From a virus: a stretch of 52,660 bases of DNA. This document shows, in pieces, positions 13,254-39,407 of this stretch (positions are counted from its first letter, which is position 1; every line of letters begins with the position of its first letter). The stretch lies in IMG/VR virus record IMGVR_UViG_3300045988_079011. The stretch is one strand, 5' to 3'. A program made the translations under genes and the position numbers. The notes under the pieces were generated by a model. The model was not told the DNA's origin and did no database searches. It saw only the letters and a list, made by a program, of their open reading frames with translations.

Positions 13254-13374
13254 TTAGATTTCCAGACGCGAGCCGATATTCGCATTCGTATTCGAAGCAT
13301 CGTTATTCGCATTCGCATTCGACACACCGCCATTCGCGTTCGCATTGTTGTACCCGCGATAGACCACACGGACT
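13254..13374 (-). repeat. DGR template repeat (TR), at least 121 bp
   Basis: Non-coding context with a unique upstream flank carrying its own -7 box. Adenine-rich AAY-codon design (11 AAY). A-free GC-rich 3' end GGCTCGCGTCTGG (IMH-like). Lies 195 nt upstream of the RT start. Confidence 0.75.
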
Positions 13375-13395
13375 ATCGGGAAGCTCCACCGGGTA

Positions 13396-13403
13396 CAAAG
13401 TTA
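13396..13403 (-). promoter_or_regulatory. Bacteroides-type -7 box for the TR-RT transcript
   Basis: TAACTTTG on the minus strand, in unique sequence 22 nt upstream of the first TR base. A TTTG lies 13 nt further upstream. Confidence 0.45.
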
Positions 13404-13433
13404 CTGATTTAACAGGCAAAATGAGCTAAAGCA

Positions 13434-13667
13434 TTACACTATCCACCAAAATAGGGCCGACAATATGCCGCCTATGACGGTAAGAGACCAGTCTATCCAG
13501 TCCCAAAGTCCGCCTTTCAGTTTGTCTTTCAGTTCCAGACAGGAGGCTGCGACAGCTGCAGCATAGAGCGCTGTCCACGGGGTGAAGGCCAAAATGCCTA
13601 CCAACAAACCGCCAATAAGGTGTTTGTAGCGGTTGCTTTGTTTGAGAAATTCGATAATTTTGTTCAT
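13434..13667 (-). CDS. Small two-TM membrane protein (holin-like candidate)
   Basis: 77 aa with two hydrophobic helices (LIGGLLVGILAFTPWTALYAAAVAA; LTVIGGILSALFWWI). Confidence 0.5.
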   Translation of the reverse strand: MNKIIEFLKQSNRYKHLIGGLLVGILAFTPWTALYAAAVAASCLELKDKLKGGLWDWIDWSLTVIGGILSALFWWIV

Positions 13668-13764
13668 AACGGGTTGTTTTTAAAAATTGTTTTGTATATT
13701 TGCAGTGAGGAATAGCGTTAGATGTTCAGAACGGGATTGTAGTTCCCGGAGCTTGCGTCTTTCG

Positions 13765-15003
13765 CTATTCTTTCTTTTTTATATGTTTGTATAATTCACC
13801 TCCTTCTGAAAGACTGTGCAGCGTGTATTCGTGCCAGTCGTATTCCCGAACTATTATCAGTGCTTTTTCACCTCTTACTTCTATCTCGAAAATGTGCGAT
13901 TGTATGAGGTGTGGAATACCTTTGTGGTTATCTGCTGTTCCCAGGTATTTGGCTTTGGCAAATACATTCTTTATATCCAGAAGCATGAGGTTCTTTTCAT
14001 GGTAGAACTTGTATGGCTGGTTGGTCCATTCTTGAAGCGTGCGTTTTGATATGTTTACCGGGAATGGGAATTCATTATTCGTGATAACTGTTCCCTGCAA
14101 TGGCTTGGCTTGCTTCTTTATCTGTTTGGCATCTGCATTGGCCAATGTTCTTACCAGTTTGCATGCGGCGCACAATTCATTTTCCGGAACGAAGACCAGT
14201 TTCATATTTCCGTTGTTCATATCGCAATCCTTACAGCGCTTGATGGTGTATGGATTATAGTCGGGCATCGTCTTTTGTTCCATGCCTGCATTGAACCGGA
14301 ACATTCCCTTTTTGTCAACTTCCAAAGCTGATTTCCCCCTTGCCATGGCCTCTTCGTGGTCTGTAGGCGGATACTTGGATTTGCGTACCTGGACCACGGA
14401 ACAGCGGCAGCCCCATCCGTTAGGAGGATAGAATTCTGCCCAGAACGGGTCTGAAGCCGGGAGTGTGATGCCGGCCATTTCTGCATGGGTGGGACGTACC
14501 TTTGCATCCCCGGCCGTGCGGTACTGTAGATAATAGCGGTCGCCGTCCTGCATGAACCGTTCCCATTTGGCTGCCATTTCAGCCGAAGCCTGTACAAAGG
14601 TGAATTCAGCCCGTAGATAGTTTGAATTGTATGTTTCGTCGATCTTCCGGACATCATTCAAAAAGCGTTCGAACGTCTTTCTATTGCCGTTTTCATCCAA
14701 CAGGGAGGGAAAGGCTTCATTCAGTTCATGGAAGGTCTTCAAGCCGGAGAATACATAGTTGGAACGCTCCAGCCGCTTGCGCATGGTCTCGGACATTTCC
14801 ACCTTTCGGAATGAACCGTTCAAGACAGAAGAATGAGCTTCTATAAAATCCTGCGCTTCTTCGGATGCCAGGATACCTATTTCAAGGTTTGCCCCTTCTT
14901 GCCGGAACAGCACCTTCATCATGCGGTCAAAGCGTTCCGTGAGCTTGTCGCGCATGAGTTTTGCCTCGTCCTCCATGGAGAGGCATAGTTTCTGTTTGCC
15001 CAA
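13765..15003 (-). CDS. Mu F-like / SPP1 gp7-like minor head protein with ~200-aa C-terminal extension
   Basis: 412 aa. Hallmark VRPTHAEMAGI....FYPPNGWGCRCSVVQV. Directly downstream of the portal. Confidence 0.85.
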   Translation of the reverse strand: MGKQKLCLSMEDEAKLMRDKLTERFDRMMKVLFRQEGANLEIGILASEEAQDFIEAHSSVLNGSFRKVEMSETMRKRLERSNYVFSGLKTFHELNEAFPSLLDENGNRKTFERFLNDVRKIDETYNSNYLRAEFTFVQASAEMAAKWERFMQDGDRYYLQYRTAGDAKVRPTHAEMAGITLPASDPFWAEFYPPNGWGCRCSVVQVRKSKYPPTDHEEAMARGKSALEVDKKGMFRFNAGMEQKTMPDYNPYTIKRCKDCDMNNGNMKLVFVPENELCAACKLVRTLANADAKQIKKQAKPLQGTVITNNEFPFPVNISKRTLQEWTNQPYKFYHEKNLMLLDIKNVFAKAKYLGTADNHKGIPHLIQSHIFEIEVRGEKALIIVREYDWHEYTLHSLSEGGELYKHIKKKE

Positions 15004-15047
15004 CAGGTGGGCATACCGCTGGTGCAGCCCCGAATAATCATCGGGGC

Positions 15048-16358
15048 TCAGTCGAAAAAACGGGACAGCGTTTCAGCCGGTTTGCCGTCTTTCTTTTTTT
15101 TCGGTTCTGTCGGGTCCGGCTCTTCTTTCGGTTCCTTCTCCTCGCACGGGATACCGTATTTTTCCTCAAAGTACTGAGGCTTTACCTTGTAGTGTTGCAG
15201 TACCATTTCCTCGTAAGCTTTCTGCTGTTCGGGCGTGTAGTCAATGGAGTAGTCCCAATCGAAGCGCAGCCCTTTAACAGGGAACCCGTGGCGCACCATG
15301 CGCGGAATGAGCTGGTTGTTCACTATATCCCGAAGCATATCACAGTCGCTTTCCACGAGGTTCTGGAACACTTCAAGGTGCGTTTCCGACTGTGATAGGC
15401 TGCTTCCGTCCTCGATGGTCATCGTCTGCCCGATGATAAGCTTTGACAGTTCGGAGTTGGCCCGATCGATACGCTTGTCATAGACATTGAATGCGTCCCC
15501 CTTGCCGCTTTCCACAAATTCGATTTCGGTTTCCATTCCTGCCACCATGGAGAGGGCGGTTCCGGCTTCACGCAACATCTTGTCGAGACGGTCAATCTCT
15601 TTCTGATCGCGCGAAGTGGTGCGTGCTATACGCATGGGCATTCCGAATATTTCCCCGAAGGTGTCCCAAAAGGCCAGCATGTTCTTTTTGGGAATAGTCT
15701 GTGAAGCAGCCTTGAGATACAGCCCGAGGTCGTCGGGCCTACCTGCCTCAATGAGCCAGTCGGAAAAAGGAGGCTGGCGGTAGTCTATACCTGTAGTCCA
15801 GTCCTGCCCGAGGTCGGTAATGACACGCCCATACTCAGGAATGACATGTTTGCGCGGAATAAGCTTCACATCCGAATAACAGATGCAGCCGTCGCCGTCA
15901 GTGCAAAGGTCGCCCAATTCGATGAGCGAATGTCCCCAGTAGATTGAATCAAGTGCATAGCGCATGAGCTGCTTGAACCAGGACTGGTCAAAGAAGTGAA
16001 CCGCTTCCTCGTTCTCATCCCCTTTCATATCCACGATTTTGAAAGAACGTGCCATGACAAAACCTCTGCGCTGCTCCACACACCCGGAGAGGTGAAGGTC
16101 TATTTCCGCGTCCCGGTAGATGTCGTACAGGCGCTGGCGGCTGGGACTGTCCACATTGATGGCATACTGCCAGGCATCGCGCCAGTTCTTGATGTCCTTC
16201 CGGGTGAGTGCATCGGTGGTGCGTTGCAGGTCGATGACCATTTTCTGCACCCGCTTGATGTCTTTCCCCTTGGCCAGATTAAAATTGCCGTATGGCGTTT
16301 GCAGTACGTTTTTCGGTTTATTGGAAAACATACCGCTGAAAAAGTCTTTAATATCCAT
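15048..16358 (-). CDS. Portal protein (Mu gp29 / DUF935-like)
   Basis: The segment FWDTFGEIFGMPMRIA...ANSELSKLIIGQTMTIEDGSS matches the DUF935 portal pattern. I chose the ATG at 16358 (MDIKDFF), 11 nt after the upstream stop, over the tracked start at 16553. Confidence 0.85.
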   Translation of the reverse strand: MDIKDFFSGMFSNKPKNVLQTPYGNFNLAKGKDIKRVQKMVIDLQRTTDALTRKDIKNWRDAWQYAINVDSPSRQRLYDIYRDAEIDLHLSGCVEQRRGFVMARSFKIVDMKGDENEEAVHFFDQSWFKQLMRYALDSIYWGHSLIELGDLCTDGDGCICYSDVKLIPRKHVIPEYGRVITDLGQDWTTGIDYRQPPFSDWLIEAGRPDDLGLYLKAASQTIPKKNMLAFWDTFGEIFGMPMRIARTTSRDQKEIDRLDKMLREAGTALSMVAGMETEIEFVESGKGDAFNVYDKRIDRANSELSKLIIGQTMTIEDGSSLSQSETHLEVFQNLVESDCDMLRDIVNNQLIPRMVRHGFPVKGLRFDWDYSIDYTPEQQKAYEEMVLQHYKVKPQYFEEKYGIPCEEKEPKEEPDPTEPKKKKDGKPAETLSRFFD

Positions 16359-16362
16359 AATC

Positions 16363-16782
16363 CTACCAGTTATGATGAAGCTGCTTCTGACAGCTGTAAA
16401 CAAATGAATTTCCGGACGGAAGCCCATCTTCTCCGACAGCCAAAGGCAAATCAGGGACAATTTTTCCGGCCTGTACGCCTTCAAGCCACTTGATGGCCCG
16501 TTCATACCGTTCCTTGCGTATCTCGCTTCCCATCTTTTGCGGCATGGCTGCACTCATGTGGTAAAGTGAAATGTCGCAGGTGTACATGACAATGAGGCGG
16601 TTCCGATGTTCATCCTGTGCAGAGAAAATGGCCGTACAGTCGTATTTCGGCCGTAGATAACCGGCAATTTCTTCCCGGGCTTCCGCTTCTGCATTGGTAC
16701 GGTTTTCCGGGCTTACCTGCGAGATAACCTTTAATGCGTTGTCGCCGATGACAACTTTGTAATCTTCTTCTGTAATGAACAT
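16363..16782 (-). CDS. DUF1320 / Mu gp36-like head protein
   Basis: 139 aa. The pattern EEIAGYLRPKYD ... CDISLYHM ... ERYERAIKWLEGVQAGKI resembles DUF1320. Confidence 0.55.
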   Translation of the reverse strand: MFITEEDYKVVIGDNALKVISQVSPENRTNAEAEAREEIAGYLRPKYDCTAIFSAQDEHRNRLIVMYTCDISLYHMSAAMPQKMGSEIRKERYERAIKWLEGVQAGKIVPDLPLAVGEDGLPSGNSFVYSCQKQLHHNW

Positions 16783-16792
16783 GACTTTACTT

Positions 16793-17023
16793 TCATTTAG
16801 TGATGAACAATGCCATTTTTTCTATATCCCGGATAGTGGTTCCCTTGCGGAAACGGTGGCGGTGAATCAGTTCACAGATGTTCCTTTTGGGGACAACTTT
16901 CAGTTTGCCACCCATATACAGGACGTAGTACTTTCTTCCGTAGAGCTTGGCGTACTTGCAAGCACGGGCAACGGCACGTTTATAGCGCCATGCAAAAATC
17001 ATTCTTTTAATCAGCTGTATCAT
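16793..17023 (-). CDS. Small basic hypothetical protein
   Basis: 76 aa from the ATG one nt after the TerL stop. The longer tracked ORF (to 17155) overlaps TerL. Confidence 0.4.
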   Translation of the reverse strand: MIQLIKRMIFAWRYKRAVARACKYAKLYGRKYYVLYMGGKLKVVPKRNICELIHRHRFRKGTTIRDIEKMALFITK

Positions 17024-17024
17024 G

Positions 17025-18584
17025 TTACCATATATTTTTGGCGGTCGGCCTTTTACCGAACACCGGTTGAAAACTCTCCTGCCTTGAATTGCGCTGCAGC
17101 ATCCAGATGGCTCCCTCGTCGGCATCCGGTGCATCATCGTGAATACGGCTGCCACGCTCCAGTGCCAAGGTCTGTTCGATTCCGGTCTGCATATCCGGCG
17201 ATTCTTTCAACTTCTCATTGTAGAATACGAAACCGCGTTCCCATAATGGTGACACCGCTTCGATGCGCTGGAGCTTGTCCGGTTTCTTTCGTTTGTCCGG
17301 CATGATGGGCAGTTGGTATCCACGCAGATTCCCTTCTGCCTCAAACTCATCCAGAATGACATCCTGCATGAAGTTCGCTTCCATAAAGAACTGGACGGCT
17401 GCCGTATCACGTGTACGCTCGTAGAGGTCGTAAAGCCACCGTACCATTCCTGAAACGGTATCCTGCCGGACGTAACAGTCTATAAGGTGCAGTTCCTTCC
17501 CAATCTTGCCCCAAAGGCGGCAAGCCTTGTAGTCGTTGGAAGTGGTCGATTTGAAAGAGGGGTCGGTATAGCAGACCAGCATTTCATACTTGGATAGCCT
17601 GGGCAGTTTCTTGTAACGAATCCAGTCTGCCCGAAAAATAGTTCCGTCCACGATGGGGTTGTGCATCATCTCCTTTTCCCATGCCCGGTAGCCTACGAAA
17701 TCCCTGTATTCCTGCGCCTCTTCTTTCGTCCATTTTTCGCGCCATACCGGTTCTCCGTTCTTGTCTATTGCCTTGATGACGGATACATGTACCCCTTTTG
17801 TCTTGGTGAGATTGGCCAGCACCGAGTTTTTAGAAATGAGGTTCCCGACCATGATAAAACGCCCCCGGCCCACATCCAGTGCACCAAAAAGGGCTTCTTT
17901 CACCCAGTCTGTAATGTCATGCACCCGTTTCTCATTGCGGCACAGTTCGTCGTCATCCAAGTCATCGATGACGATGTAGTCCGGACGTGCTTCCCGGTCT
18001 CGCAAACCACGTGGAGACTGTCCGCGTCCGCAAGCCAGGAATTTCACCCCGTTGGCCGCCTTGAACTCCCCATCCTGCCAGGAGGCATTCCCCTGCTGCT
18101 TGCCGAAGTCGGCAATGATGCGCTGGTTATGTTCCAGTTCTGCCTGAATATCTCCCAGCAGACGTGTGGCTGAGTCCTCACTTTTGCCGACCACCACCAT
18201 GAAGTTGATGAGACGTTTGGGCTGGAACATCAGCCACAGCGGAACAAAAATGTCCATGTGTGTGGACTTGGCATGGCCACGCGGCCACATGAATACCGCT
18301 TTCAGGTTGGGTGTGCCTTTTACTTTAGCCGCTGCCGCATTGTGGAACGGTGCATTGTGGATGGTGCGTATGACTTCCCCGGTGGTTTTGTCACGCAAGG
18401 TGAGAAAGTGGGGGAAGTAATATTCACAGAACGCGGCATAGTTACCCTGCAGACGCAGAATACGCCTGTCCTTTTGTGCCGGTGTCTCGCCCGCGAGCAA
18501 AGCCGTATCCGTGATGGACTGCACTCTTTTACAGTGTTCCTTCCACTGTTCGTATGCCTGTTTCTTTTCCGCTGCTGTTGCCAT
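17025..18584 (-). CDS. Terminase large subunit (Mu gp28-like)
   Basis: 519 aa. Walker A-like WPRGHAKST, Walker B YIVIDDLDDDE. C-terminal nuclease-like region. Follows TerS. Confidence 0.85.
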   Translation of the reverse strand: MATAAEKKQAYEQWKEHCKRVQSITDTALLAGETPAQKDRRILRLQGNYAAFCEYYFPHFLTLRDKTTGEVIRTIHNAPFHNAAAAKVKGTPNLKAVFMWPRGHAKSTHMDIFVPLWLMFQPKRLINFMVVVGKSEDSATRLLGDIQAELEHNQRIIADFGKQQGNASWQDGEFKAANGVKFLACGRGQSPRGLRDREARPDYIVIDDLDDDELCRNEKRVHDITDWVKEALFGALDVGRGRFIMVGNLISKNSVLANLTKTKGVHVSVIKAIDKNGEPVWREKWTKEEAQEYRDFVGYRAWEKEMMHNPIVDGTIFRADWIRYKKLPRLSKYEMLVCYTDPSFKSTTSNDYKACRLWGKIGKELHLIDCYVRQDTVSGMVRWLYDLYERTRDTAAVQFFMEANFMQDVILDEFEAEGNLRGYQLPIMPDKRKKPDKLQRIEAVSPLWERGFVFYNEKLKESPDMQTGIEQTLALERGSRIHDDAPDADEGAIWMLQRNSRQESFQPVFGKRPTAKNIW

Positions 18585-18591
18585 AGCCGTT

Positions 18592-19056
18592 TTATTTTAT
18601 GCCCATCTGTTCGGTGATATACAGATCCTGGTACTTGTTGATTGCCCTGACCAGTTCCGGAGTCACTTCCGGGTCGATGGTTGAACGGTATTCAATCCAT
18701 TTGGAGAATGCCATGAACACTTCAATGACATCCACTACGTTGGCCTTCTTGTCTAACTTTTCAATCACCGCCGAAAGTTTGGCCAGTTTGTCCCCGAGAC
18801 CAGCTACAAGTGCAGGGTCGTTCGATTCGTTGACTTGAGTAATGAGTGTATCAATGGTGAGCAGGAGTTTGTTCACCAGTTCCGGCCGGGTGACGTTCTT
18901 TGCCGCCCTTGCCTCTTTCCATCCGTCAGCCGTGCACCATTTTGAGATGGTGACGCGTGACACGTCCACTTTCTCCGCAATTTCAGTCTGTTCCATGCCG
19001 GAAAGGAACAGTGAGCGTGCAAGAGATTTTTTCTTTTCGATTTCTGCCTTTGTCAT
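18592..19056 (-). CDS. Terminase small subunit (Mu gp27 / DUF1804-like HTH)
   Basis: 154 aa. GMEQTEIAEKVDVSRVTISKWCTADGWKEAR is typical of the gp27 family. Confidence 0.7.
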   Translation of the reverse strand: MTKAEIEKKKSLARSLFLSGMEQTEIAEKVDVSRVTISKWCTADGWKEARAAKNVTRPELVNKLLLTIDTLITQVNESNDPALVAGLGDKLAKLSAVIEKLDKKANVVDVIEVFMAFSKWIEYRSTIDPEVTPELVRAINKYQDLYITEQMGIK

Positions 19057-21758: not shown

Positions 21759-22235
21759 ATGGACTTGAGCGAATTTATGAACATTATCCTTGGCGGCGGC
21801 CTGGTTGGTACGGTGGCGACCATTGGCTCCTTGCGGGCTACTGTGAGAAAAGCGAAAGCGGAAGCGATGAAGGCCGAGGCCGGTGCAGAGGCCATGCGCA
21901 TAGATAACGCCGAACATGCCACCCGCATTTTGATGGAAAATATTGTAAAACCTCTAAAAGATGAATTTTGTGAAACAAAGAAAGAACTGGCCCGCAATAC
22001 GCGCGAGATGGCCCGTCTTAGAAAAGCTATTGATACAGCCGGAAACTGTCCTCATCGTGACGATTGCCCTGTGCTTGACAGGTTGCGCGAGTCACCGAAA
22101 GAGCATGAACCGGGAAGTCCGGACGGAATCGGCAAGCGCCGACAGCGCGAGCGGAAGTCGACGGGCGGGACTGGTGATGGCGGGTATACCGGCGAGTTCG
22201 GTGAAGCTGACTATACCGGCGGACAGCCTCCGTAA
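21759..22235 (+). CDS. N-terminal TM + coiled-coil protein (i-spanin-like or holin-associated)
   Basis: 158 aa. TM helix IILGGGLVGTVATIGSL, then a helical KAKAEAMKAEAGAEAMRIDNAEH region. The low-complexity C-terminal third overlaps the next gene. Confidence 0.5.
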   Translation: MDLSEFMNIILGGGLVGTVATIGSLRATVRKAKAEAMKAEAGAEAMRIDNAEHATRILMENIVKPLKDEFCETKKELARNTREMARLRKAIDTAGNCPHRDDCPVLDRLRESPKEHEPGSPDGIGKRRQRERKSTGGTGDGGYTGEFGEADYTGGQPP

Positions 22236-22527
22236 ACTTCCTGAAGGTGCCGTGTACCGTGGCAAGAGCGGACAGGCGAATCTGACCGTAGGCAGCGACG
22301 ACAGCGGGAACATCGTGGCCGAAGCCTCGTGTGACAGTCTGCAGCAGCTGGTGCTATGGTATGAAGAAGAGCTGGCGCGCATCCGTAGCGAAACCAAGAG
22401 CGAAATTTCAAATGACGTTCAAACAGTAGAAAAACGCCCTCCGAACCGGATGCGGACGTTTATCACAGGTGTATTGGCCGGCTTATTGGCCGGTGTGTTA
22501 TTAACCATCAAACTTTATAAACGATGA
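21961..22527 (+). CDS. Lipobox protein with C-terminal TM (spanin-like)
   Basis: 188 aa. Lipobox LCLTGC. C-terminal TM FITGVLAGLLAGVLLTI followed by KLYKR. Overlaps the previous ORF out of frame by about 275 nt. The exact start is uncertain. Confidence 0.5.
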   Translation: MNFVKQRKNWPAIRARWPVLEKLLIQPETVLIVTIALCLTGCASHRKSMNREVRTESASADSASGSRRAGLVMAGIPASSVKLTIPADSLRKLPEGAVYRGKSGQANLTVGSDDSGNIVAEASCDSLQQLVLWYEEELARIRSETKSEISNDVQTVEKRPPNRMRTFITGVLAGLLAGVLLTIKLYKR

Positions 22528-23099: not shown

Positions 23100-23102
23100 C
23101 GT

Positions 23103-23591: not shown

Positions 23592-23836
23592 GAACCCGGT
23601 ATGAGGGTTCCCATAGCCCTTTCGGCTTCGTGTGGCAGATAGCGAGTGCAACGGGCTGGAGTGTGGACTACATTCTGGACGGTGTGAATTACCAGACGCT
23701 GATACTGATGCTGAACGACGCGCCGCGGTATGTGCGGCAAAAGCAAGGCGGCGGAAACGATGATTCCAAACCGGAACACAGCGCCGAGGATGAAGCGAAC
23801 GATATAGTAGGATTTTTTCAAAGCAAACTGGAATGA
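23582..23836 (+). CDS. Putative -1 frameshift extension of the tail chaperone (GT-like)
   Basis: The -1 frame is open from before the G stop through 23836 and encodes protein-like sequence (SPFGFVWQIASATGWSVDYILDGVNYQTLILMLNDAPRYV). It ends in an ATGA overlap with the tape measure start. Candidate slip region AGGAAGGGGA at 23577-23586 is non-canonical. Confidence 0.45.
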   Translation, partial: GELRTRYEGSHSPFGFVWQIASATGWSVDYILDGVNYQTLILMLNDAPRYVRQKQGGGNDDSKPEHSAEDEANDIVGFFQSKLE

Positions 23837-27480: not shown

Positions 27481-27481
27481 T

Positions 27482-27946: not shown

Positions 27947-27967
27947 CCATTTAAATGACGCTCAAAT

Positions 27968-30900: not shown

Positions 30901-31663
30901 GGTATTCTCTACCAACAAGGCAGACGCACTGGCCTATAAGTACCGCACACTGTTCGAGCAGAGCGACCGGCTGGTGAAGATTTCAGCGGCGGTATTTGAC
31001 AAGGACGGTGAAGCATTGAAAGAAACCGGACTGGTGGTGAAGCCGGAAGGTGCCGGGCTGTATGCCCAGGATGCCAGCGGCAAGGTGGCCCTTATCGGGG
31101 TCAGTGTGGAAGATACGGACGAATACGGCAAGCCCGTGAGCAAAATCAAGCTGACCGCTGACCATATACAGCTGGAGGGACTGGTGACAGCCAACGGCAA
31201 TTTCAAGATACTGGAAGACGGGAGCATGGAATGCCGGAATGCATCTGTATATGGAAAAATATTTGTTGAGGACGGAGGAAAGGTAGGAACATTTACAGTT
31301 GAAAGGAATTGTATGCTTTGGAGTAATGGAGATGCTGAAATTCGATTGGGATATGACGGCTATTGGACCGGAGATACCTGCATCTATGCTAAGGCAAACA
31401 ATTTTAGTAATGCAATCATGGGTATTGCTCCATTTGGTGGAGCAGGTATTTATGGAAGTTGTCGTGAGAAGCCTACTTATCCTGACAAATATACATTTTC
31501 AGCAGGATATTTCGATGGCGATGTGTTGGTGCATTCCGGTAATATTCTGGTGAGTGGTGGTGTGGTACAAGCTGATAAAATGCTTCCTCAAAATGGTTGG
31601 TCTGGGCGATTCAAGGGTAAAACAGTAGAAGTACAGAATGGAATTATCATTAACGTGTCATAA
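27968..31663 (+). CDS. Tal-like tail tip / host-specificity protein
   Basis: 1231 aa. The N-terminus (IYDKAGNKRADV...NVLSLSFSYY...YTDYQGERYRL) resembles the prophage tail endopeptidase/Tal N-terminal domain. The last ~140 aa are compositionally distinct. Confidence 0.7.
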   Translation: MLLTIYDKAGNKRADVAVNDSSTQSKEVQGDNVLSLSFSYYAFVPLDVNDYTDYQGERYRLTERYTPKQVSEGEWEYNLKLYGIESLIKRFLVLETTDGDTNPLFTLTATPREHVAMVVKAINDGMGHITDWKTGTVEGTKLITIDYEGMYCDEALKAIAEKAGGKVEWWVEGQTVNVCRCEHGEEITLGYGKGLTSLERDTSNTAKFYTRLFPVGSTRNIDAEKYGSPRLMLPGGKKYIEQGVDEYGIYDHYEQEAFSDIYPHRVGTVSSVRSEEVTDDEGNKFTIYYFRDGELNFDPNLYELAGETKRVSFQTGDLTGLGESDDHYFEVNYDSAAREFELITIWPYDDGTQLPGGKLVPRAGDTYILWNIRMPDEYYRMAEEEFAAAVEEYNRDHWLDIAAYKAPTDPVYMEEHGIDLFVGRRVKLESRKYFPEKGYRQSRITKISRKVNEPGQMDIEISDALQVGKFDKVTDSIGALKCYTKSKTEGAALPDIIRSWDKTLPTDNNLFSARRSQKEFLNKSKPDTAKEPIRFLKGVTFGEATGGKPCGSVDGEGNAEYLTAVIRELLRSTEFVDGLTGEGWQLWIDQLTGLTNLTVDKVTARQSLVALELLIEQVRSVCGQLVVSAANGKIKDVVKQGDNYRILFEQESGFVAHDLMRCAVTGGKKLKAYWVEVASVIAGGVMVPVSEFGGVKPEAGDECVLMGNTENPLRQNLISIAATEDGQPRIDILDGVKAKNFNGCLRCRLGKLDGIRSSAFPADNQPKGNGLYADNVWLKGTFVLMTGEDILTRFEITEGKIHSAVEGLRKEIREDQSYLDNSSFADGMDKWKTGSKATLFTLGGRWIWANGGPYGTKPDGHVEIRTDGKVPYAYIRNNYIMQRLKDFRLVPEYRQTNSQGERVPGVVYLSFSYRVIKAGRLKIEFVGADKTGFENFNLFGHEEDLPVGGEKMFTLDGLWNGTGDFKLSFTGVIYISLLVFSTNKADALAYKYRTLFEQSDRLVKISAAVFDKDGEALKETGLVVKPEGAGLYAQDASGKVALIGVSVEDTDEYGKPVSKIKLTADHIQLEGLVTANGNFKILEDGSMECRNASVYGKIFVEDGGKVGTFTVERNCMLWSNGDAEIRLGYDGYWTGDTCIYAKANNFSNAIMGIAPFGGAGIYGSCREKPTYPDKYTFSAGYFDGDVLVHSGNILVSGGVVQADKMLPQNGWSGRFKGKTVEVQNGIIINVS

Positions 31664-31675
31664 AAATGAATAGTT

Positions 31676-31981
31676 ATGAAGGTGAATTTTAACAAGACGT
31701 TTAAGGATTATAGAGGGAATGACCTCATAGTCGGTGGAAAAGTCCAGCTGATGACAGATATTATAGCCCAATGCCTTTTTAATGGGGAAGGTGCTCGATC
31801 ATCCGGTGATTCTAATAAGGATAGCAGCCGTAAAATCCATTCGTATGAATTGTGCATGCGTCTCATACAGGCAAACGGGGATTTATCCATCAGTGCTGAG
31901 GATGCTATACTTATAAAAGAGTCTGTAATCGGGCTAACCCCAGGATGTTATTCACAGATCGTAAAATTGATAGATGAATAG
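31676..31981 (+). CDS. Hypothetical protein in the low-GC islet
   Basis: 101-aa ORF, AT-richer than its neighbours. Confidence 0.5.
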   Translation: MKVNFNKTFKDYRGNDLIVGGKVQLMTDIIAQCLFNGEGARSSGDSNKDSSRKIHSYELCMRLIQANGDLSISAEDAILIKESVIGLTPGCYSQIVKLIDE

Positions 31982-32699
31982 ATTTATGGCAGAAATGACG
32001 CAAGAAGAAATGGTTCAGGAAGTGCTGGACCGTGTGCTCCAGTCCTCTACCGGTGTGGAGGATTTGGAAACTGTTACCTCGCTGAACGGTGTGAAATCAC
32101 TGCCCGGCGAGAAGGACGGCAAGATGGTGATCGTCCCCCTGGAACTGATAGGGAAACCTGCGAGCGATGCCGCCGCCCGTGCCGAGGCTGCCGCCAAGAA
32201 AGCGGAAGGAGCCGTAGCCGGACTGGAGGAAAAGACCCAGGCCGCCACGGAAGCCGCTACCAAGGCCAACGAAGCGGCAGCCAAGGCAGAAAATGCCGCT
32301 GCCAAGGTGGAACAGACTACGGCAGCAGCCGTCGGCGGGGCTACTGTACGCTTTTCATCATGGATGGAAACAGGCAACGTTTTACCTGACAAAAGTACCA
32401 AGCCGGGCGGCAGCGTGGTGTATGTGGCCGGTGCCGGGAAATTTGCCTACCACATGGACTCCACCCTGTACGGGGACTGGGACGTGGCGGGAGTACCCCC
32501 TGCCGGCATGTTCATGAATGCGGACCGGACAGCCATCCTGCCGGACAAGCTTTACCTGCTGGGCGATGCCGTATATACCGGAACAGAAGGCCGCCTGAGA
32601 CTACTTTCCTACCGGCATGAGGTGATGAGCGGGGATGCTTACGAAGCACTGCCGGACAAGGATGAGAATACGCTGTATCTGATTTATGAGGAGGAGTGA
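31974..32699 (+). CDS. Ala-rich coiled-coil fibre-associated protein
   Basis: 241 aa. AAARAEAAAKKAEGAVAGLEEKTQAATEAATKANEAAAKAENAAAKVEQ. Confidence 0.55.
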   Translation: MNRFMAEMTQEEMVQEVLDRVLQSSTGVEDLETVTSLNGVKSLPGEKDGKMVIVPLELIGKPASDAAARAEAAAKKAEGAVAGLEEKTQAATEAATKANEAAAKAENAAAKVEQTTAAAVGGATVRFSSWMETGNVLPDKSTKPGGSVVYVAGAGKFAYHMDSTLYGDWDVAGVPPAGMFMNADRTAILPDKLYLLGDAVYTGTEGRLRLLSYRHEVMSGDAYEALPDKDENTLYLIYEEE

Positions 32700-32890
32700 C
32701 GATGATAACCATAGGCGGTAAGGAAATAACGGCTGCGTATGTGGGAAAACGTGCCCTGTCGGCTGTCTATGCCGGGGCAAGGCTGGTATGGTCCGCAATC
32801 AGCAGCTGTTTCGGACTTGGATACTGGAAAGGCGACGAGCCGTGGAACGGGTCGGACGCATGGAACGGTAGCAGTAAAACTGATAAATGA
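32696..32890 (+). CDS. Small hypothetical protein
   Basis: 64-aa ORF with an ATGA overlap to the upstream gene. Confidence 0.4.
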   Translation: MTMITIGGKEITAAYVGKRALSAVYAGARLVWSAISSCFGLGYWKGDEPWNGSDAWNGSSKTDK

Positions 32891-32915
32891 ATGATTATTA
32901 TAAAAGGAGAGTATT

Positions 32916-35900
32916 ATGGCAAAAAGGAAAATAAGCGGAATCATCAATGCGACTGAACATCCGATGAATCTTGAAACACCATGGAACCAGAAACAGCCGG
33001 ACGGCACCTATCATGCCTATGCCGGGGACGATGTAGAAGCGTTTCTGAAGAAGGAACTGTCAAACCGTACCCCTACTGAGGAACTGGTGAGCGGCGAGAC
33101 GAAGCCCCCTACATCCGGAACGGTGTTTGATGCAATGGTGGGTACGGTGACGGACGTGGATGTGCAGGACAGCGAGGACGGCACTCAATATGTGATGACC
33201 GTGAAGCAGAAGGATAACCAGGGCGGCGAGAGCTCGAAGGAGGTGCGCTTCTCGAAGTACACCGACGACGACAAGGTGGTGTTGTACATTGACCTGACGG
33301 ACAGCGGCGGCGCGGGACTTCCCTCGCAGCAGTACCTGGCACTGGGAAGCGGTTTTGTGGTGAAATACTCTGTGGGCGTGGGTACTGCCGGTGGCGGTAC
33401 GGTGGACGGCTACAGCGACCTGAAAGCCCGCGTGATTGTGAAACGCGGTTCGACCGTGATCAGTGAGTTCCGGGATGCAGAGTTTGTGGGCGTGACAGCC
33501 GGACAGGCTTATACCTTTGACGCTTCGCCCTACCTGAAGGATGCCACCGCCTATACCGTGCAGGTGGAAGCGCAGGCAACCTACCAGGGCGGCACACTGA
33601 TGAAGACGGCCACGGCCAAGGTGACCATGGTGGCCATGGAGCTGGAGACCAGCTACTCGGCGGGCAACGGGCTGGCCGACGGGGGATATAAAAATGACGT
33701 GAACATCCCCTTTACTGCCAAGGGCACGAGCGGGGAGAAGAACATCTACTACCGCATCAACGGCGGGCAGGCCTTTACCCTCGGTCTTTCGGCCGGCAGC
33801 GGTGTGCAGCAGAAGAACGTGACCATCCCACTGGCTCAGATGCAGGAGGGTACGAACGTGGTGGAAGCCTACGCGCAGCATGAGAACTCCGGTGTGGTGA
33901 GCCGGGTGCATTACATTACGCTGCTGAAGGCAGGAGGCGGTGTGACAGCGTATGCCGGCCTGATGTTCAGCCACCGGGCAGCGGGGTTCCAACGCGACTG
34001 GAAACATCCGGTGCTGGAGGCAGAGCAGTTCACGGCATGGGCCTTTACGTATGCCGGCTATGACCGCGATGCGTACACGGCCCGTGTGAAAGTGACGGGC
34101 CAGGGCAGCGTGGTGAAGGAAGACCTGCTGCAGCGCGGTGAGACCGGCAGCTACGGACGGACGAACGTGAACGTGGAACCGCTGGACTACCGTGTGTCGT
34201 GCGGCGATGCCGTGCTTGAGGTGCAGGTGAACACCACATCGCACCCGGACATTGAAGCCACGCTGGCACCGGATGCCGTGTGTACGTTTGACGCCTTCGG
34301 GCGAAGCAACACGGAAAACAACCCGGCAAGCTGGGTGAGCGGTGACAAGCGCATGGAGTTCCGGGACGTGCTGTGGAGCGTGAACGAATATGGTGCCGGT
34401 AGCGGCTGGCACAAGGACCGCCTGCTGCTGGCCGGTGGTGCAGGTATGACCCTGACCGCTGACGGCGGGTACCGCCCCTTCAACGAGGCGGACAAACCCG
34501 AAGGCTTTGCTATTCGTGATGTGGGCATGACACTTGAGATAGAATACAGCACGGCCAACGTGACGGACACGGATGCGGAGCTGATCACCTGCCTGGGGCA
34601 GCTGGACAACGGGAACCGGTACGGGCTGATTGTGACCCCGGAAGAGGCCAAGTTCCTGACCGGAGTGGTGACCGAGGCGATGGATGCCGGACAGGTGCTG
34701 CGCTATGAGGACTCGGTGGGTACGAAGTTCCAGCCGGGCACGAACATCCGCATTACCTACGTGTTCTATCCGAACGTGCAGACCAATGAACAGCGCACGC
34801 TGATCGGTTTCTATGTGAACGGTGAAGAGTCGGCTGCTTCCAAGTGGCTCGACAAGGTGAATTTTGACATTCAGAGCCAGCTGGAATTTAAGTCGGCAGG
34901 TGCCGACCTGAACGTGAAGAGCGTGCGTATCTATAACAAGGCGCTGACCTCGGATGAGGTGCTGAACAACTACATCGTGGACCGCAACCACCTGGAGGAT
35001 GCCGACGGGGAACCGGGCGTGCGCTCGCTGGATGAGGACAACCGCGTGCTGAACGAAGGAGACACGGTGAGCATGGAGAAGCTGATGGGGCTGATGAAGA
35101 AGCGCCGGAACTCGATCCTGGTACTGATAGGCACGGGCAGCGTGGGCAGTGAGGTTCCGAGCGAGAGCGACACGCTGAACGTGGTGGATGCACTGGCCCA
35201 GCTGAACGACAAAAAGGCCAACAAGCTGGTAAGGGAGGTCCGTTTCTATAACGGAGAGGACAGGACGCTTGACTTTATCCTTACCAACGTATATGTCCGT
35301 ATTCAGGGTACTTCTTCCGTGAACTATGCCAGAAAGAACTTCCGTTTCTACTTCCAGAAGACGGCAAGCGGCTGGACGGTTACATTGAGCTACGGGGAGA
35401 TTGACGGAAACGGCAGGCAGAAGAATCCGGTGGTAACTACCGGCAAAAAAAATCTCTTCAAGTTGCGCAGGAACTCCGTAGGCGCGAAGCTGGCATGTTC
35501 CAAATGCGACTTCTCGGACTCGTCCATGACCACCAATACCGGTGGTGCGAAGCTTATCAATGACGGACTGAAAGAGATGGGGCTGCTTACGCCTGCCCAG
35601 CGTTACGCCAAAGACCACGGGCTGGAGGATGATTACCGTTCGGCCATCGACGGCCTGCCGTGCGACCTGTTCGTAGCGAAGAGTGCCGACGAAGACCTGA
35701 CCTATTACGGCCAGTACAACATGAACAACGAGAAGAGCGACAGCTACCCCATCTTCGGGCAGGATGAGACCATCGGCGGCGAGAAATGGGGCGAGGGCGA
35801 CACGCTGAACTATCTGGAAGCCGACGAGGAAGGACACAAGCAGTACCTGCCAATCTGCTTCGAGACGCTGAACAACTCCAATCCGCTGTGCCTGTTCCAC

Positions 35901-38900
35901 TGGTTGCCGAGTACCGAACCGGAGCATAAGGATTTCATGGACTACAACTTTGACGGAGGACTGGAGTTCAACCATCCGAAAGATACCTTCTGGGCTGACG
36001 GAGGCGGTGATGCCGAGGAAGAACCGAATATGAAAGACCACTTGGGGCAGGGTGATGTGTACGATAAGATGTATAAGGCTACCGACCGCATGATGAGCTT
36101 CGTTTACCGCTGTGTGAAGGAAACTCCTGCCGGAAAGAGTATGACTTACAGTATGGAATCGCATGCGTTCGAGGGGGTAGATTATGAAGATGATGGCGAC
36201 AAGTTCCCTACCGCTAAATGGAAGAGCGATACGTTTAAGAAAGAGGCATCGAAGTATTTCGACCTTCCCCATCTGATAGCTTACTATCTGTACGTGCAGT
36301 TTAACCTTGGTGTCGACCAGCTTGCCAAGAACATGCTTATCCGTACTTGGGACGGGGTGAAATGGTTGATTACTTATTATGACGGAGACTGCCAGTTGGG
36401 TTCAGACAACAAGTCATTCCTTACGGGAAAATATAACGATAACCGTCAGACCAAGCGCGACGGGGCTTATGTGATGCAGGGTCATAACTCGTGGCTGTGG
36501 AACCTCATCGTGGCCAATTGCTGGGACATGATTGTGGAGATTATGGTGAGCGGATGGAACGGGGGCGCAAGCTTCATGAGTGCCTTCAGTATCCAGAAAG
36601 CCATTGACCATTTCGATACCGAACAGATGAAGAAGTGGTGCTCACGCCTCTATAACAAGTCCGGCATCTTCAAATACATCTACCCGTTCCTGAACGAAAT
36701 GCCGGTAGGTGCTGACGGTGCCAAACAGACGTATCCGCAAATCTACGGTCTGAAGGGTTCGTTAAAAGCACACCGGAACTACTTCATCCAACGCAGGTAC
36801 GACCTGAAGCAGGTGGAGTACGGCTATGTATCTACGCTGGGTGCCCAGTTCTACCAGAGTACGGCATCGCTGGACAAGGCTTATAAACTGAAACCGATGC
36901 AGTACCGGCTGACCATCCCTTACCGTGTGCAATTATCCACCTCAAACGGTATACAGGCTGACAGCGGCGTGGTGGATGCAGACGTGCTCCATTCCCTGCA
37001 GCTGACCCGTGCCTTCGGTGAGAACGACCCGCTGAAGATTATCGGTGCAGCCAAAATCAAGGAGCTGGTATGGCACGAGGATGCGTTCGCAATCGGCTTC
37101 AACTTCGGTCTGCTGACCTCACTGGTAAAACTCGACATGAGCGTGGAGAAAGCCAGCGGTTACCGGAACGGCTCGTTCATGGCTTCGACGAACGGCATGC
37201 TGCTTTTGGAAGAAGTGAACATGCGGAACAACCGGCTGGCCCGGAACGGGGACAACGGGAATGTGGCTACTTTGGACTTGAGCTGGCAGGGCCGCCTGAA
37301 GAAACTGGACGTGAGGGGTACGGGGCTGACCCGTGTGAAACTGGCCACCGGTGCGCCCGTTGTGCAGTTATGCCTGCCGGACACGATTGAGGAACTGTTC
37401 CTGGAATATCTGACCAAGCTGTCCGATAGTGGCCTGATACTGGAAGGCATCAATAATGTGCGGGGCTACCGCTACACCAACTGCCCCGGCATCGACGGGT
37501 TCGCTATGCTGGAACGCCTACATCAGGCCAGACTGAACGGCAGCGGCAAGCTGGAGCGCTTCGTGCTGGAGATAGACCGGGAAGACGACGGAACCCTGCT
37601 GAAGAAGTATTACGACTACGGAACGTATACGCAGACGGGTGCCGTGGATGACCGGCATTCGGGACTGAGGGGCAAGCTGACCCTGACGAAGTATCTGGCC
37701 GATGAGGAACTGGAGAAGTATGCCGCCCGTTATCCGGAACTGACCATCAAGCAGCCGCCCTATACGATGATCGAGTTTGACGACAGCGTGGCCGACGATG
37801 CCAATATTTCAAACCTGGACAACAAGACCGGATACAAGTTCGGGAATGCGTACAAAATGAGCGGGCATGTGAATGCCATCCTGTCCAAGCGCCACCGCGT
37901 ACTGGCCAAGGTGACCAGGATGCCTACGAACCGGAAGGTGGAGATAGCCGGGCAGCAGGTGGAAGTGAACAACCCGGACGGGGAGATGACCTATTTCCCC
38001 CTGCATGACGAAAGCTCGAACTTCTATGCCGATGCGGAGGATATGAACGACTGCACGGTGGCGAAGCTGGACGGCAGCGAGGGAGACTGGATGATGTATG
38101 AACCGTTCTACTGGAGCAAGGGTATCAATGACTATCTGGCTGGCAAGAAGTACGCCTGCTACAGCAGCTATCCGGAGGACGAAATGCCCCCTGTTCCGGA
38201 GGCAACTATACTGACGCTGGATGCGATCAAGGAAACACAGGGCGGCTGGCTGGGTGAACGCAAGATCATGAGCGGAAAACCTACGTTGATGGAATCCTAT
38301 ACGACTGACAAGGCCTATTCGGTTTGTAAGGTGGATGTATCCGGCTACAGACGTGTCCGCTTTCCGAGCGTTCCCGGTACGGGGCTTATCGGCAGTGTGT
38401 TTGTGGATGATGCAGGAAGCATCCTGAAGAGCATCGTGGTGCCGACCATCGGCTTGAAATTTGAAGCCGGCATGTATCTGATAGCAGACGTTCCGGAACG
38501 TGCTACAGCCCTGCATTTCTCCATTCTGAACACGGCAGAGTTTGACTGCGTGGTACTGAGCCACAGCGACAAGATAGAGGACATGGAACCGGATTGGGTG
38601 GCCAATGAGGAGCATCTGTGTGCCGTTGTGGGCAGTTCGGTGGTGGGCAGCAAGCTTCGTGCCTGCATAACCGGTACCTATACAGCCGGAAGCATGACCT
38701 GGACGGACTTCCACTACTACAGCCAGCAGCGGGGCATGCAGCAGATAGATGCGCTGATGCACAGCCGCATTGCGAATCTGAGCTATGCACGGTACGGTCG
38801 CAGGGACATGCAGGAACAGTGCGGTGCCGGGGAGCATAATTACAATAGAATAACGGGTGGAACGGCAGAGCATGGGATGACAGATACCATCGGCTACGAT

Positions 38901-39407
38901 GAAGCGTATGCCATCAACAACAAAATCACGAATTCGCTGATTGAAGGTCTGGTGCACCAGTATGCCTGGTATAAGAGCCGTGACGAATACGGACAGGAGA
39001 CTGTGGTGCAGGTGAAAAATATCTGCTGCCTGGGCTATGAGGACATCTACGGCAACAAGTATGACATGATGGACGGCGTGGATCTGCCGAACGACAGCGG
39101 CAACGTGGGCAAATGGCGCATCTGGATGCCGGACGGCACGGTGCGCTGGGTGCAGGGGAAAAAGGACAGCGGACAGTGGATTTCAGGCGTGGCACACGGC
39201 AAGTATATGGACCTGGTTCCGGTGGGTAATCTGAACGGATCATCTTCTACTTACTATACCGACATGTACTGGATAAGCACCGCTACAGTCCGTGTGGTCT
39301 ATCGCGGGTACAACAATGCGAACGCGAATGGCGGTGTGTCGAATGCGAATGCGAATAACGATGCTTCGAATACGAATGCGAATATCGGCTCGCGTCTGGA
39401 AATCTAA
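32916..39407 (+). CDS. Giant multidomain tail fibre / receptor-binding protein, DGR target (C-terminal C-type-lectin-fold VR)
   Basis: 2163 aa. LamG-like segment (VKSVRIYNKALTSDEVLNNYI). CotH-like motifs (VRIQGTSSVNYARKNFRF; NLFKLRRNS; WDGVKWLITYYDGDCQLG). LRR-like segment (aa ~1370-1550). C-terminus VVYRGYNNANANGGVSNANANNDASNTNANIGSRLEI fits the CLec-type VR pattern RG...N..IG.RL. Confidence 0.85.
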   Translation: MAKRKISGIINATEHPMNLETPWNQKQPDGTYHAYAGDDVEAFLKKELSNRTPTEELVSGETKPPTSGTVFDAMVGTVTDVDVQDSEDGTQYVMTVKQKDNQGGESSKEVRFSKYTDDDKVVLYIDLTDSGGAGLPSQQYLALGSGFVVKYSVGVGTAGGGTVDGYSDLKARVIVKRGSTVISEFRDAEFVGVTAGQAYTFDASPYLKDATAYTVQVEAQATYQGGTLMKTATAKVTMVAMELETSYSAGNGLADGGYKNDVNIPFTAKGTSGEKNIYYRINGGQAFTLGLSAGSGVQQKNVTIPLAQMQEGTNVVEAYAQHENSGVVSRVHYITLLKAGGGVTAYAGLMFSHRAAGFQRDWKHPVLEAEQFTAWAFTYAGYDRDAYTARVKVTGQGSVVKEDLLQRGETGSYGRTNVNVEPLDYRVSCGDAVLEVQVNTTSHPDIEATLAPDAVCTFDAFGRSNTENNPASWVSGDKRMEFRDVLWSVNEYGAGSGWHKDRLLLAGGAGMTLTADGGYRPFNEADKPEGFAIRDVGMTLEIEYSTANVTDTDAELITCLGQLDNGNRYGLIVTPEEAKFLTGVVTEAMDAGQVLRYEDSVGTKFQPGTNIRITYVFYPNVQTNEQRTLIGFYVNGEESAASKWLDKVNFDIQSQLEFKSAGADLNVKSVRIYNKALTSDEVLNNYIVDRNHLEDADGEPGVRSLDEDNRVLNEGDTVSMEKLMGLMKKRRNSILVLIGTGSVGSEVPSESDTLNVVDALAQLNDKKANKLVREVRFYNGEDRTLDFILTNVYVRIQGTSSVNYARKNFRFYFQKTASGWTVTLSYGEIDGNGRQKNPVVTTGKKNLFKLRRNSVGAKLACSKCDFSDSSMTTNTGGAKLINDGLKEMGLLTPAQRYAKDHGLEDDYRSAIDGLPCDLFVAKSADEDLTYYGQYNMNNEKSDSYPIFGQDETIGGEKWGEGDTLNYLEADEEGHKQYLPICFETLNNSNPLCLFHWLPSTEPEHKDFMDYNFDGGLEFNHPKDTFWADGGGDAEEEPNMKDHLGQGDVYDKMYKATDRMMSFVYRCVKETPAGKSMTYSMESHAFEGVDYEDDGDKFPTAKWKSDTFKKEASKYFDLPHLIAYYLYVQFNLGVDQLAKNMLIRTWDGVKWLITYYDGDCQLGSDNKSFLTGKYNDNRQTKRDGAYVMQGHNSWLWNLIVANCWDMIVEIMVSGWNGGASFMSAFSIQKAIDHFDTEQMKKWCSRLYNKSGIFKYIYPFLNEMPVGADGAKQTYPQIYGLKGSLKAHRNYFIQRRYDLKQVEYGYVSTLGAQFYQSTASLDKAYKLKPMQYRLTIPYRVQLSTSNGIQADSGVVDADVLHSLQLTRAFGENDPLKIIGAAKIKELVWHEDAFAIGFNFGLLTSLVKLDMSVEKASGYRNGSFMASTNGMLLLEEVNMRNNRLARNGDNGNVATLDLSWQGRLKKLDVRGTGLTRVKLATGAPVVQLCLPDTIEELFLEYLTKLSDSGLILEGINNVRGYRYTNCPGIDGFAMLERLHQARLNGSGKLERFVLEIDREDDGTLLKKYYDYGTYTQTGAVDDRHSGLRGKLTLTKYLADEELEKYAARYPELTIKQPPYTMIEFDDSVADDANISNLDNKTGYKFGNAYKMSGHVNAILSKRHRVLAKVTRMPTNRKVEIAGQQVEVNNPDGEMTYFPLHDESSNFYADAEDMNDCTVAKLDGSEGDWMMYEPFYWSKGINDYLAGKKYACYSSYPEDEMPPVPEATILTLDAIKETQGGWLGERKIMSGKPTLMESYTTDKAYSVCKVDVSGYRRVRFPSVPGTGLIGSVFVDDAGSILKSIVVPTIGLKFEAGMYLIADVPERATALHFSILNTAEFDCVVLSHSDKIEDMEPDWVANEEHLCAVVGSSVVGSKLRACITGTYTAGSMTWTDFHYYSQQRGMQQIDALMHSRIANLSYARYGRRDMQEQCGAGEHNYNRITGGTAEHGMTDTIGYDEAYAINNKITNSLIEGLVHQYAWYKSRDEYGQETVVQVKNICCLGYEDIYGNKYDMMDGVDLPNDSGNVGKWRIWMPDGTVRWVQGKKDSGQWISGVAHGKYMDLVPVGNLNGSSSTYYTDMYWISTATVRVVYRGYNNANANGGVSNANANNDASNTNANIGSRLEI
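39287..39407 (+). repeat. DGR variable repeat position (assembled sequence identical to the TR)
   Basis: In frame with the last 40 codons of the target gene. 121/121 identical to the reverse complement of 13254-13374. All 11 AAY codons are intact. Confidence 0.7.

Follow-up and report, generated by a model that had tools for sequence, protein, structure and literature searches.

In the diversity-generating retroelement (DGR) of Bordetella phage BPP-1 (mtd-avd-TR-brt), the target gene, the template repeat (TR) and the reverse transcriptase (RT) gene are adjacent and co-oriented, with avd located upstream of the TR. The same adjacent plan is followed by the hankyphage of Bacteroides (Bacteroides phage p00 / jmh72_hp, PV107408.1; PMC6199706, PMC12135933). 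The PV107408.1 genome is composed of early genes including MuA/MuB (plus strand), head/packaging genes (minus) and a tail block ending with the tail fibre and its variable repeat (VR) (plus), followed by hp41, the TR, the RT, 'Avd', hp44, ThyA, the methyltransferase (MTase) and the right end; the cassette is thus located directly downstream of the tail fibre and co-oriented with it, at the right end of the genome. The hankyphage literature that we examined describes this adjacent layout only, and the text of a 2026 preprint on a hankyphage-inclusive family with conserved DGR genes is silent on a remote inverted layout. More distant targets are on record: the survey of Wu et al. (PMC5758913) contains two phage-associated DGRs whose only target is ~20 kb away, and TR/VR pairs on opposite strands are documented, as rare cases, by myDGR (PMC6602519). 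Here we analysed a viral sequence of 52,660 nt (IMG/VR record IMGVR_UViG_3300045988_079011; the whole stretch is referred to as the window), whose source is a Mu-like transposable prophage of gut Bacteroidales of ~40.7 kb. In its native state, the TR (13262-13374, minus strand) and the VR (from 39287, plus strand) of this phage are inverted and 25.9 kb apart. We estimate at about 90% the probability that this remote inverted DGR is real and that the right-hand 13.4 kb of the window is a mirror-image assembly error caused by the inverted TR/VR arrangement.

The window has the structure of a perfect fold-back: 1-13374, once reverse-complemented, equals 39287-52660 with 0 mismatches, and the two arms enclose a unique middle of 25,912 nt (13375-39286). 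The innermost tip of these 13,374-nt arms is formed by a 121-nt repeat (13254-13374 on the minus strand, 39287-39407 on the plus strand), whose copies are exact reverse complements of each other; the figure of '13385 nt, 100%' given by the repeat finder results from rounding across a few chance matches. No further or diverged copy of the repeat was found in the window at up to 40 mismatches per 121 nt or up to 11 per 40-nt piece, and, both copies being 100% identical, the window is without a diverged TR/VR pair. The left arm (1-13374) carries the genuine early/transposition region of the phage and the DGR cassette, in native order and orientation relative to the middle. The middle (13375-39286) comprises an open reading frame (ORF) of 77 aa and the head/packaging genes (minus), followed by the lysis and tail genes including the tail-fibre gene (plus), and the right arm (39287-52660) is read as an artefactual reverse-complement copy of 1-13374. 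The G+C content is 46.3% in the arms versus 53.2% in the middle.

The left junction (between 13374 and 13375) is native, as had been proposed in the initial annotation. It is spanned by GenBank scaffold MT839296.1, which is 99.95% identical to window 12764-17163, and it is present in exact form in 13 IMG/VR contigs from different metagenomes, in which colinearity with the window extends over the early genes and MTase-ThyA-Avd-RT-TR-77aa ORF-MuF-portal and reaches into the tail block. The full left-hand order reads early genes, then MTase-ThyA-Avd-like-RT-spacer-TR-77aa ORF-MuF-portal-TerL (minus), then tail genes (plus). In exact-protein look-ups, for which place counts refer to the longest contigs displayed, the window layout was found at 9/10 of the listed places with the exact RT and at 10/10 of those with the exact large terminase subunit (TerL), the tail genes lying on the opposite strand within the same locus in the TerL cases. 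These places include the complete chromosomes CP131534.1, CP072246.1, CP054204.1 and CP103225.1 as well as polished long-read contigs, and window 2000-23000 matches them unbroken at 99.8-99.9% identity; in CP131534.1 the repressor gene and the RT are on the same strand, 11.7 kb apart, matching the window. The TR-spacer-RT unit adjoins 13375 in ~19 large genome loci, and complete chromosomes keep the TR at this place. The exact RT and TerL sequences are indexed in 29,552 and 50,428 blocks of the assembly collection, respectively.

The right junction (between 39286 and 39287), on comparison with relatives, is chimeric, native only up to 39286 and the start of the repeat. The genuine part of the DGR target, a tail-fibre gene (phrog_14959) homologous to that of the hankyphage, extends from 32916 to 39286 on the plus strand, and the repeat forms the in-frame end of ORF 32916-39407. 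The terminal part of this ORF (39287-39407) consists of the unmutated TR (113 nt) and 8 nt of TR 3' flank with a premature stop; it retains all AAT/AAC codons, reading ...YNNANANGGVSNANANNDASNTNANIGSRLEI before the stop, and therefore represents the template and not a diversified VR. Homology between TR and VR stops sharply, in an IMH-like boundary, at ...GGCTCGCGTCTGG, the VR being located just before the last 22 codons of the tail fibre. Natural VRs run on from ...CGTCTGG into CCTTCCGCGG (CCTTCCGCGGCAAA... in the IMG/VR contigs with the exact flank), for 22 more codons, whereas the window instead continues from ...CGTCTGG into AAATCTAA, which is the TR's own 3' flank. The tail-fibre ORF of the window encodes 2163 aa ending in GSRLEI, compared with 2181-2194 aa ending in GSRLAFRGKIVRAQSVAAYKAIREVA in relatives, and the window is without the true VR, the last 22 codons of the gene and the right end of the phage. 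The initial proposal that this junction too is native holds for the tail-fibre flank (to 39286) and for the beginning of the repeat, the remaining repeat being unmutated TR with TR 3' flank; the repeat does end a tail-fibre ORF in frame, as had been stated, but only as assembled, since that ORF is chimeric and truncated. A C-type lectin (CLec) C-terminus had also been suggested: this assignment is a literature statement for the homologous hankyphage target (PMC6199706), and the last 268 aa of the tail fibre gave no Pfam, NCBIfam or PDB sequence match, while the single-sequence AlphaFold2 (AF2) model of the C-terminus had a predicted local distance difference test (pLDDT) score of 33, unusable for a fold search.

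Downstream of the true stop codon of the tail fibre, two types of organization were observed. In type A, which is hankyphage-like, ~190 nt are followed by the 77-aa ORF, the TR and the RT, all co-oriented; in type B, ~350 nt of non-coding DNA ending in ...GCGCGAACATTTCGATTTGCGGATTATA are followed by unrelated sequence. All ten listed large contigs with the window's exact 241-aa neighbour protein (10/10; among them isolate genomes and a 3.7-Mb polished contig) are of type B: the tail fibre, of the relatives' length, is the last phage gene, the shared right end ...TTTGCGGATTATA is located ~350 nt past it, and different host genes lie beyond. Four of these loci (L101-L105 group) are 99.1% identical to window 22000-39286, up to base 39286, and a second look-up yielded more type-B right ends, e.g. 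CP107195.1. Among the IMG/VR contigs carrying this TR, 23 are of type A, 14 of type B and none of both.

These two types bear directly on the opposite reading of the window, in which the right-arm order (tail fibre, repeat, spacer, RT) is real and the left junction is the artefact. Such an order has parallels in the adjacent co-oriented cassettes of the hankyphage and of many type-A relatives, and the genome of locus L111 carries the identical RT in the adjacent layout. However, in type A the spacer never comes directly after the VR, since 22 codons, ~190 nt and the 77-aa ORF separate the VR from the TR. Past the type-A MTase come the phage end and then host DNA, whereas the MTase in the right arm of the window adjoins reverse-complemented early genes, an adjacency of type B. 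The left junction occurs, at 99.9% identity, in complete chromosomes and in polished long-read contigs; this reading is therefore refuted, and we consider it extremely unlikely.

The native order of the genome is therefore left end, early genes (plus), DGR cassette (minus), head genes (minus), tail genes with the tail fibre and VR (plus), and right end, and the placement of TR/RT and VR on opposite strands about 25.9 kb apart, the main proposal of the initial annotation, is borne out for this lineage by its left-hand and right-hand loci. The link between RT/TR and VR is based on the continuity of the window together with overlapping independent loci that back its middle (L110, 2000-23000; L056, 13134-27457; L101, 22000-39286). 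The genome size of ~40.7 kb follows from a left end situated 917 nt beyond window position 1 and from the located right end. The phage terminates on either side in an imperfect inverted repeat (...ACGTTTCGTTCTGTGCCCCATA and ...ACATTTCGATTTGCGGATTATA), with ACGTTTCGTTTTG-like sites recurring in the subterminal regions, and the adjoining host genes differ across ~17 loci at the right end and across 10 loci at the left end. With a MuA-like transposase (1764-3803, plus; phrog_310, E = 1.8e-48, no Pfam MuA match) and a MuB-like ATPase (3842-4720, plus; AAA_22, phrog_296 DNA transposition protein, E = 2.1e-41), these many unrelated insertion sites and terminal inverted repeats identify a Mu-like transposable phage. 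The head/packaging block (13765-19056, minus) encodes a Mu F-like minor head protein, a Mu-type portal, a gp36-like protein, TerL and the small terminase subunit TerS, and the identical loci give the Pfam matches Phage_Mu_F, Portal_Mu, Phage_Mu_Gp36 and Terminase_5.

Perfect terminal inverted repeats such as those of the window often lead to contigs being scored as complete 'ITR' genomes, i.e. genomes with inverted terminal repeats (ITRs), and the window could on this criterion be taken for a complete linear genome with genuine 13.4-kb ITRs. The arms, however, hold single-copy essential genes (MuA, MuB, repressor, RT), which would all be duplicated; near-identical prophages in closed chromosomes are ~40.7 kb long, with one copy of each gene and short imperfect Mu-type ends; and the contig ends (window 1-10 and 52651-52660) lie in a poly-C/G low-complexity tract, 917 nt inside the left end of the phage, beyond which the prophage carries an 80-aa gene and terminal transposase-binding repeats. 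We give genuine ITRs next to no chance. Intramolecular transposition of the Mu type was also examined as a source of the duplication and was rejected, because the junctions coincide with the TR/VR homology and not with Mu ends.

The fold-back would instead result from the inversion of TR and VR relative to each other, and the earlier remark that this arrangement permits a fold-back assembly explains the contig. Over its first ~22 nt the VR does not vary and matches the TR exactly, whereas its remainder is hypervariable in the population. An assembler leaving the tail-fibre flank would enter these shared ~22 nt and take the high-coverage TR path, since with a hypervariable VR the TR would be the sole well-covered continuation from this flank. 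The TR being inverted, the path would then run backwards through the cassette and the early region and produce the perfect 13,374-nt duplicate, leaving a truncated chimeric tail-fibre ORF and losing the true VR and the right end. If the assembly step is responsible, essentially no read should join 39200-39286 to unmutated TR plus AAATCTAATTAATCGG. Four other short SPAdes contigs, with coverage of 0.26-2.3, show the window-type join, always with pure TR, and analogous VR/TR collapses are present in three type-A contigs (L034, L025 and L011).

Two biological or experimental origins of the same join have to be weighed against an assembly error. As TR and VR are inverted repeats flanking a segment, recombination between them could flip the 26-kb middle in a fraction of the population or make fold-back molecules, with the contig merging both isomers; the recurrence of the join in four other metagenome contigs is in agreement with this, as is an isolate assembly described below (L125), in which a VR is fused to the TR 3' flank and which suggests that recombinants may occur. 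An inversion requires, however, a reciprocal junction, and none was found in 241 M metagenome records or in the IMG/VR contigs with the TR flank (0/13). The join itself is missing from all of ~40 isolate or large-contig places with the window-type flank, and it had 0 occurrences in 185,579 species-representative genomes, a collection for which the number carrying the flank was not established. The join is always to pure TR, which places the switch within the first ~22 nt, whereas crossovers would be spread along the repeat; the supporting contigs have very low coverage (0.26-2.3), and the product would carry a truncated tail fibre. We therefore judge a biological inversion very unlikely. The fold-back might also predate assembly, as a chimeric molecule that arose through template switching, during whole-genome or PCR amplification, at the inverted 22-nt homology. 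The amplification of virome DNA is known to give inverted chimeras at short homologies, and the junction is located exactly at the shared stretch. The same join in four unrelated SPAdes assemblies, together with the type-A collapses, suggests a systematic assembly effect, and a perfect arm of 13.4 kb needs a long-range support that sporadic chimeras rarely give, so that such a chimera is quite unlikely as well.

Several points weigh against a remote inverted DGR whose contig was folded back by the assembler. No single public record was found that holds both RT/TR and VR/right end: none was common to the listed exact-protein matches of the left and right sides; the IMG/VR contigs with both end patterns were all type-A scaffolds broken at the VR; and the GenBank phage records contained no complete genome of the lineage, only three short Mexican gut scaffolds with 100% identity and hankyphages at ~75%. 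The fold-back may stem from graph traversal or from an amplification chimera, the activity of the DGR is deduced from the VR diversity of the population, and the arms stop 917 nt short of the left end where a run to the end is predicted. Finally, the isolate assembly L125 (GCA_009019145.1, WCWN01000001.1; 17570-17940) contains a diversified VR fused at ...CGTCTGG to the TR 3' flank, the spacer and the RT, so that real VR/TR recombinants may exist. Its tail fibre is 2165 aa long, the 20-kb locus has one copy of the repeat, and its cassette is closest (93.8%) to type-B contigs. L125 could be explained by a collapse or by a genuine rearrangement, either a deletion if the phage is of the adjacent type or an inversion if it is of the remote type. 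Its specific junction had 0 matches in the genome collection.

If taken as real molecules, L125 and the four metagenome contigs with the window-type join may reflect that the inverted TR and VR occasionally recombine in vivo, through homologous exchange or aberrant cDNA-primed events, and so drive structural rearrangement in Mu-like phages. We regard this as a speculative and very improbable extension. If true, such recombination would invert the 26-kb segment with the head and tail genes, or join the tail fibre to spacer and RT, and it could explain moves of the cassette between the adjacent and the remote inverted layouts.

The VRs of type-B loci point to a remote inverted DGR that appears active, with ongoing mutagenic homing. 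All 19 type-B loci with a full-length VR have distinct VRs (19/19), with substitution rates relative to the template of 33.8% for A, 0.9% for C, 1.3% for G and 2.7% for T, and their 1-kb upstream flanks differ by ~4%. Among the IMG/VR contigs that share the exact 26-nt tail-fibre flank, 25 carry a full-length in-register VR, in which 39.1% of A, 3.3% of C, 3.3% of G and 5.3% of T positions are substituted. By analogy with established DGR biology, the TR-spacer RNA would be reverse-transcribed by the RT with adenine-specific errors, and a diffusible cDNA would then replace the VR by homology, presumably in trans, with the distance and the relative orientation of donor and target being immaterial. 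That DGR components provided in trans edit targets elsewhere was shown experimentally for the BPP-1 DGR (PMC5758913, PMC12875486), and a 2026 study edited ~5000 chromosomal sites in both orientations, with an efficiency set by the orientation relative to replication (PMC12875486).

Individual VRs show further variation. The prophage loci L102 (ERZ920439) and L103 (JGI 3300029538), apparently from the same gut community, differ only in the VR, at A-positions, which is consistent with VR heterogeneity within a sample. In the IMG/VR type-A contigs L018 and L038 the VRs, in their proper context, show only 3-4 differences from the TR and look recently homed or barely mutated. The VR of L042 (IMGVR_UViG_3300045988_005267) contains ~54 nt extra, corresponding to two 27-nt internal units, so that targets vary in repeat number besides their A positions. 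In L011 (IMGVR_UViG_3300014946_000156; 1371, 1984), the copy at the template position, adjoining the spacer, keeps 18/28 adenines, and its substitutions also occur in the VR of that contig. Either the VR overwrote the TR, an event that would cripple the DGR, or assembly produced a chimera of the opposite direction.

The cassette itself carries the hallmarks of a DGR: an RT with GxxxSQ and YxDD motifs, adenine-restricted TR/VR differences (in relatives), a 3'-terminal VR and a structured spacer. Its native order is 77-aa ORF, promoter-like box, TR, RT-3 spacer, RT, Avd-like gene, helix-turn-helix (HTH) gene, ThyA and MTase. The TR (13262-13374, minus) comprises 113 nt of VR homology with 28 adenines, mostly in AAT/AAC codons, and is invariant among type-B genomes, whose VRs differ at its A positions. 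It displays an internal periodicity of 27 nt, or nine codons (window 13274-13346 and 39315-39387: YNNANANGG / VSNANANND / ASNTNANIG). Upstream of the TR, the box at 13396-13403 reads CAAAGTTA on the plus strand, i.e. TAACTTTG on the minus strand, and fits the Bacteroides -7 consensus TAnnTTTG. The initial annotation had placed this box 22 nt from the repeat; the measured distance is 21 nt, and the TAnnTTTG motif is kept at a fixed distance from the TR in all lineages compared (type A, type B and hankyphage). It is the putative promoter from which the TR-spacer RNA would be transcribed. Another TAnnTTTG box (TATATTTG, 13695-13702, plus) is located between the 77-aa ORF and MuF and is directed antisense into MuF.

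The structured spacer and the RT that had been predicted to follow the TR were both identified. The spacer RNA between TR and RT (13104-13251, minus) is a full-length match to the Rfam family RF03068 (RT-3 RNA; 153.8 bits, E = 2e-39, gathering score 40.5). Hairpins are visible in its single-sequence fold, yet this fold is no more stable than those of shuffled sequences (z = -0.74), and the claim of structure is accordingly based on the covariance-model match and not on folding energy. The RT (11757-13058, minus; 433 aa) matches Pfam RVT_1 (E = 2.7e-11) and contains the motifs FGLRSSQ (GxxxSQ) and YCDD. It is followed, with a 4-nt overlap with the RT stop, by a candidate accessory protein of 161 aa (11275-11760, minus), which shares 63% aa identity with the protein annotated 'Avd' in hankyphage PV107408.1. 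This candidate gave a weak DUF4376 match, a match to phrog_19239 (function unknown) and no NCBIfam match, and its AF2 model (pLDDT 45, mixed alpha/beta) was too poor for a fold search.

The remaining cassette genes, all on the minus strand, encode an 80-aa protein with weak HTH/Mor-family Pfam matches (10829-11071), which could be a Mor-like late activator travelling with the DGR cassette, a thymidylate synthase (ThyA, 10119-10757; Pfam) and a D12 adenine MTase (9283-10122; Pfam). On the other side, the 77-aa hydrophobic ORF (13434-13667, minus; phrog_38535, function unknown) travels with the cassette and immediately precedes the TR in type A as well as in type B. On its far side the relocated cassette is bounded by a 40-nt palindromic terminator-like hairpin (9216-9255, mirrored at 43406-43445), which separates the MTase from the convergent neck genes. 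Two side observations concern a further scaffold, MT837734.1 (L004), which is otherwise 99.4-100% identical to the window: it is missing a 128-nt segment of the early region (5469-5596, equal to 47065-47192), and it terminates, at its positions 11714-11837, in a 124-nt direct duplication of window 52225-52348.

The combination of a remote inverted target and a mirror-image contig has consequences for both DGR biology and viral catalogues. A very common human-gut phage lineage would run its DGR wholly in trans, on a sole target 26 kb away and on the other strand. Together with the hankyphage, it forms a natural matched pair for the question of whether the proximity and orientation of donor and target affect retrohoming, which adds to the replication-orientation effect reported in 2026. 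The largest DGR survey (Roux et al., PMC8144416) states that remote targets are undetectable by its approach; the DGRs of this lineage are therefore probably missed, or recorded as 'RT without target'. In addition, a hypervariable VR and an inverted TR can make assemblers output perfect fold-back contigs, which resemble complete genomes with long ITRs (here 52.7 kb versus a real size of ~40.7 kb) and in which the target gene is truncated and template-like. Screening for DGR fold-backs is advisable in viral catalogues where ITR contigs count as complete.

The specific features of this phage are best appreciated by comparison with the hankyphage, its closest annotated relative, with which it shares a Mu-like transposable lifestyle, Bacteroidales hosts and the internal gene order of the cassette. 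At the protein level, identities to hankyphage are 79% for the RT (the hankyphage RT is experimentally active), 82% for ThyA, 63% for the Avd-like protein and 66% for the MTase, and 56-86% for the tail block, which includes a homologous tail-fibre target whose VR is C-terminal. For the early and head/packaging proteins, in contrast, identity is only 24-34%, and at the nucleotide level only the RT region matches (~75%). The window thus represents a distinct lineage and not a rearranged hankyphage, and its phage is a mosaic relative within the same broad family, sharing tail and DGR modules with the hankyphage. Unlike in the hankyphage, the cassette is inverted and located 25.9 kb away from its target, between the early and head modules, with the tail fibre as the last gene, and a neck gene (Phage_tail_S, 8207-8767, plus) is on the strand opposite to that of its hankyphage counterpart.

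Like the DGR of BPP-1, the system diversifies the C-terminus of a phage receptor-binding protein by adenine-specific transfer from TR to VR, and it likewise has a GxxxSQ RT, a structured RNA spacer separating TR and RT, and a gene that is a candidate for the accessory factor; it differs in that this candidate is located downstream of the RT and is not recognisable as Avd by sequence, and in its remote, inverted target. As in phage Mu and other transposable phages, we found MuA/MuB, Mu F, a Mu-type portal, gp36, many insertion sites, imperfect terminal inverted repeats and repeated subterminal sites. Unlike Mu, the phage has no invertible G segment, and its tropism would be varied via the DGR and not by site-specific inversion. 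Non-adjacent or opposite-strand targets are shared with the DGRs of Treponema denticola and Legionella (PMC5758913, PMC6602519). Compared with these rare cases, the layout described here typifies a very widespread gut phage lineage, which is a widespread instance of a known but rarely documented architecture, combined in the window with an assembly artefact.

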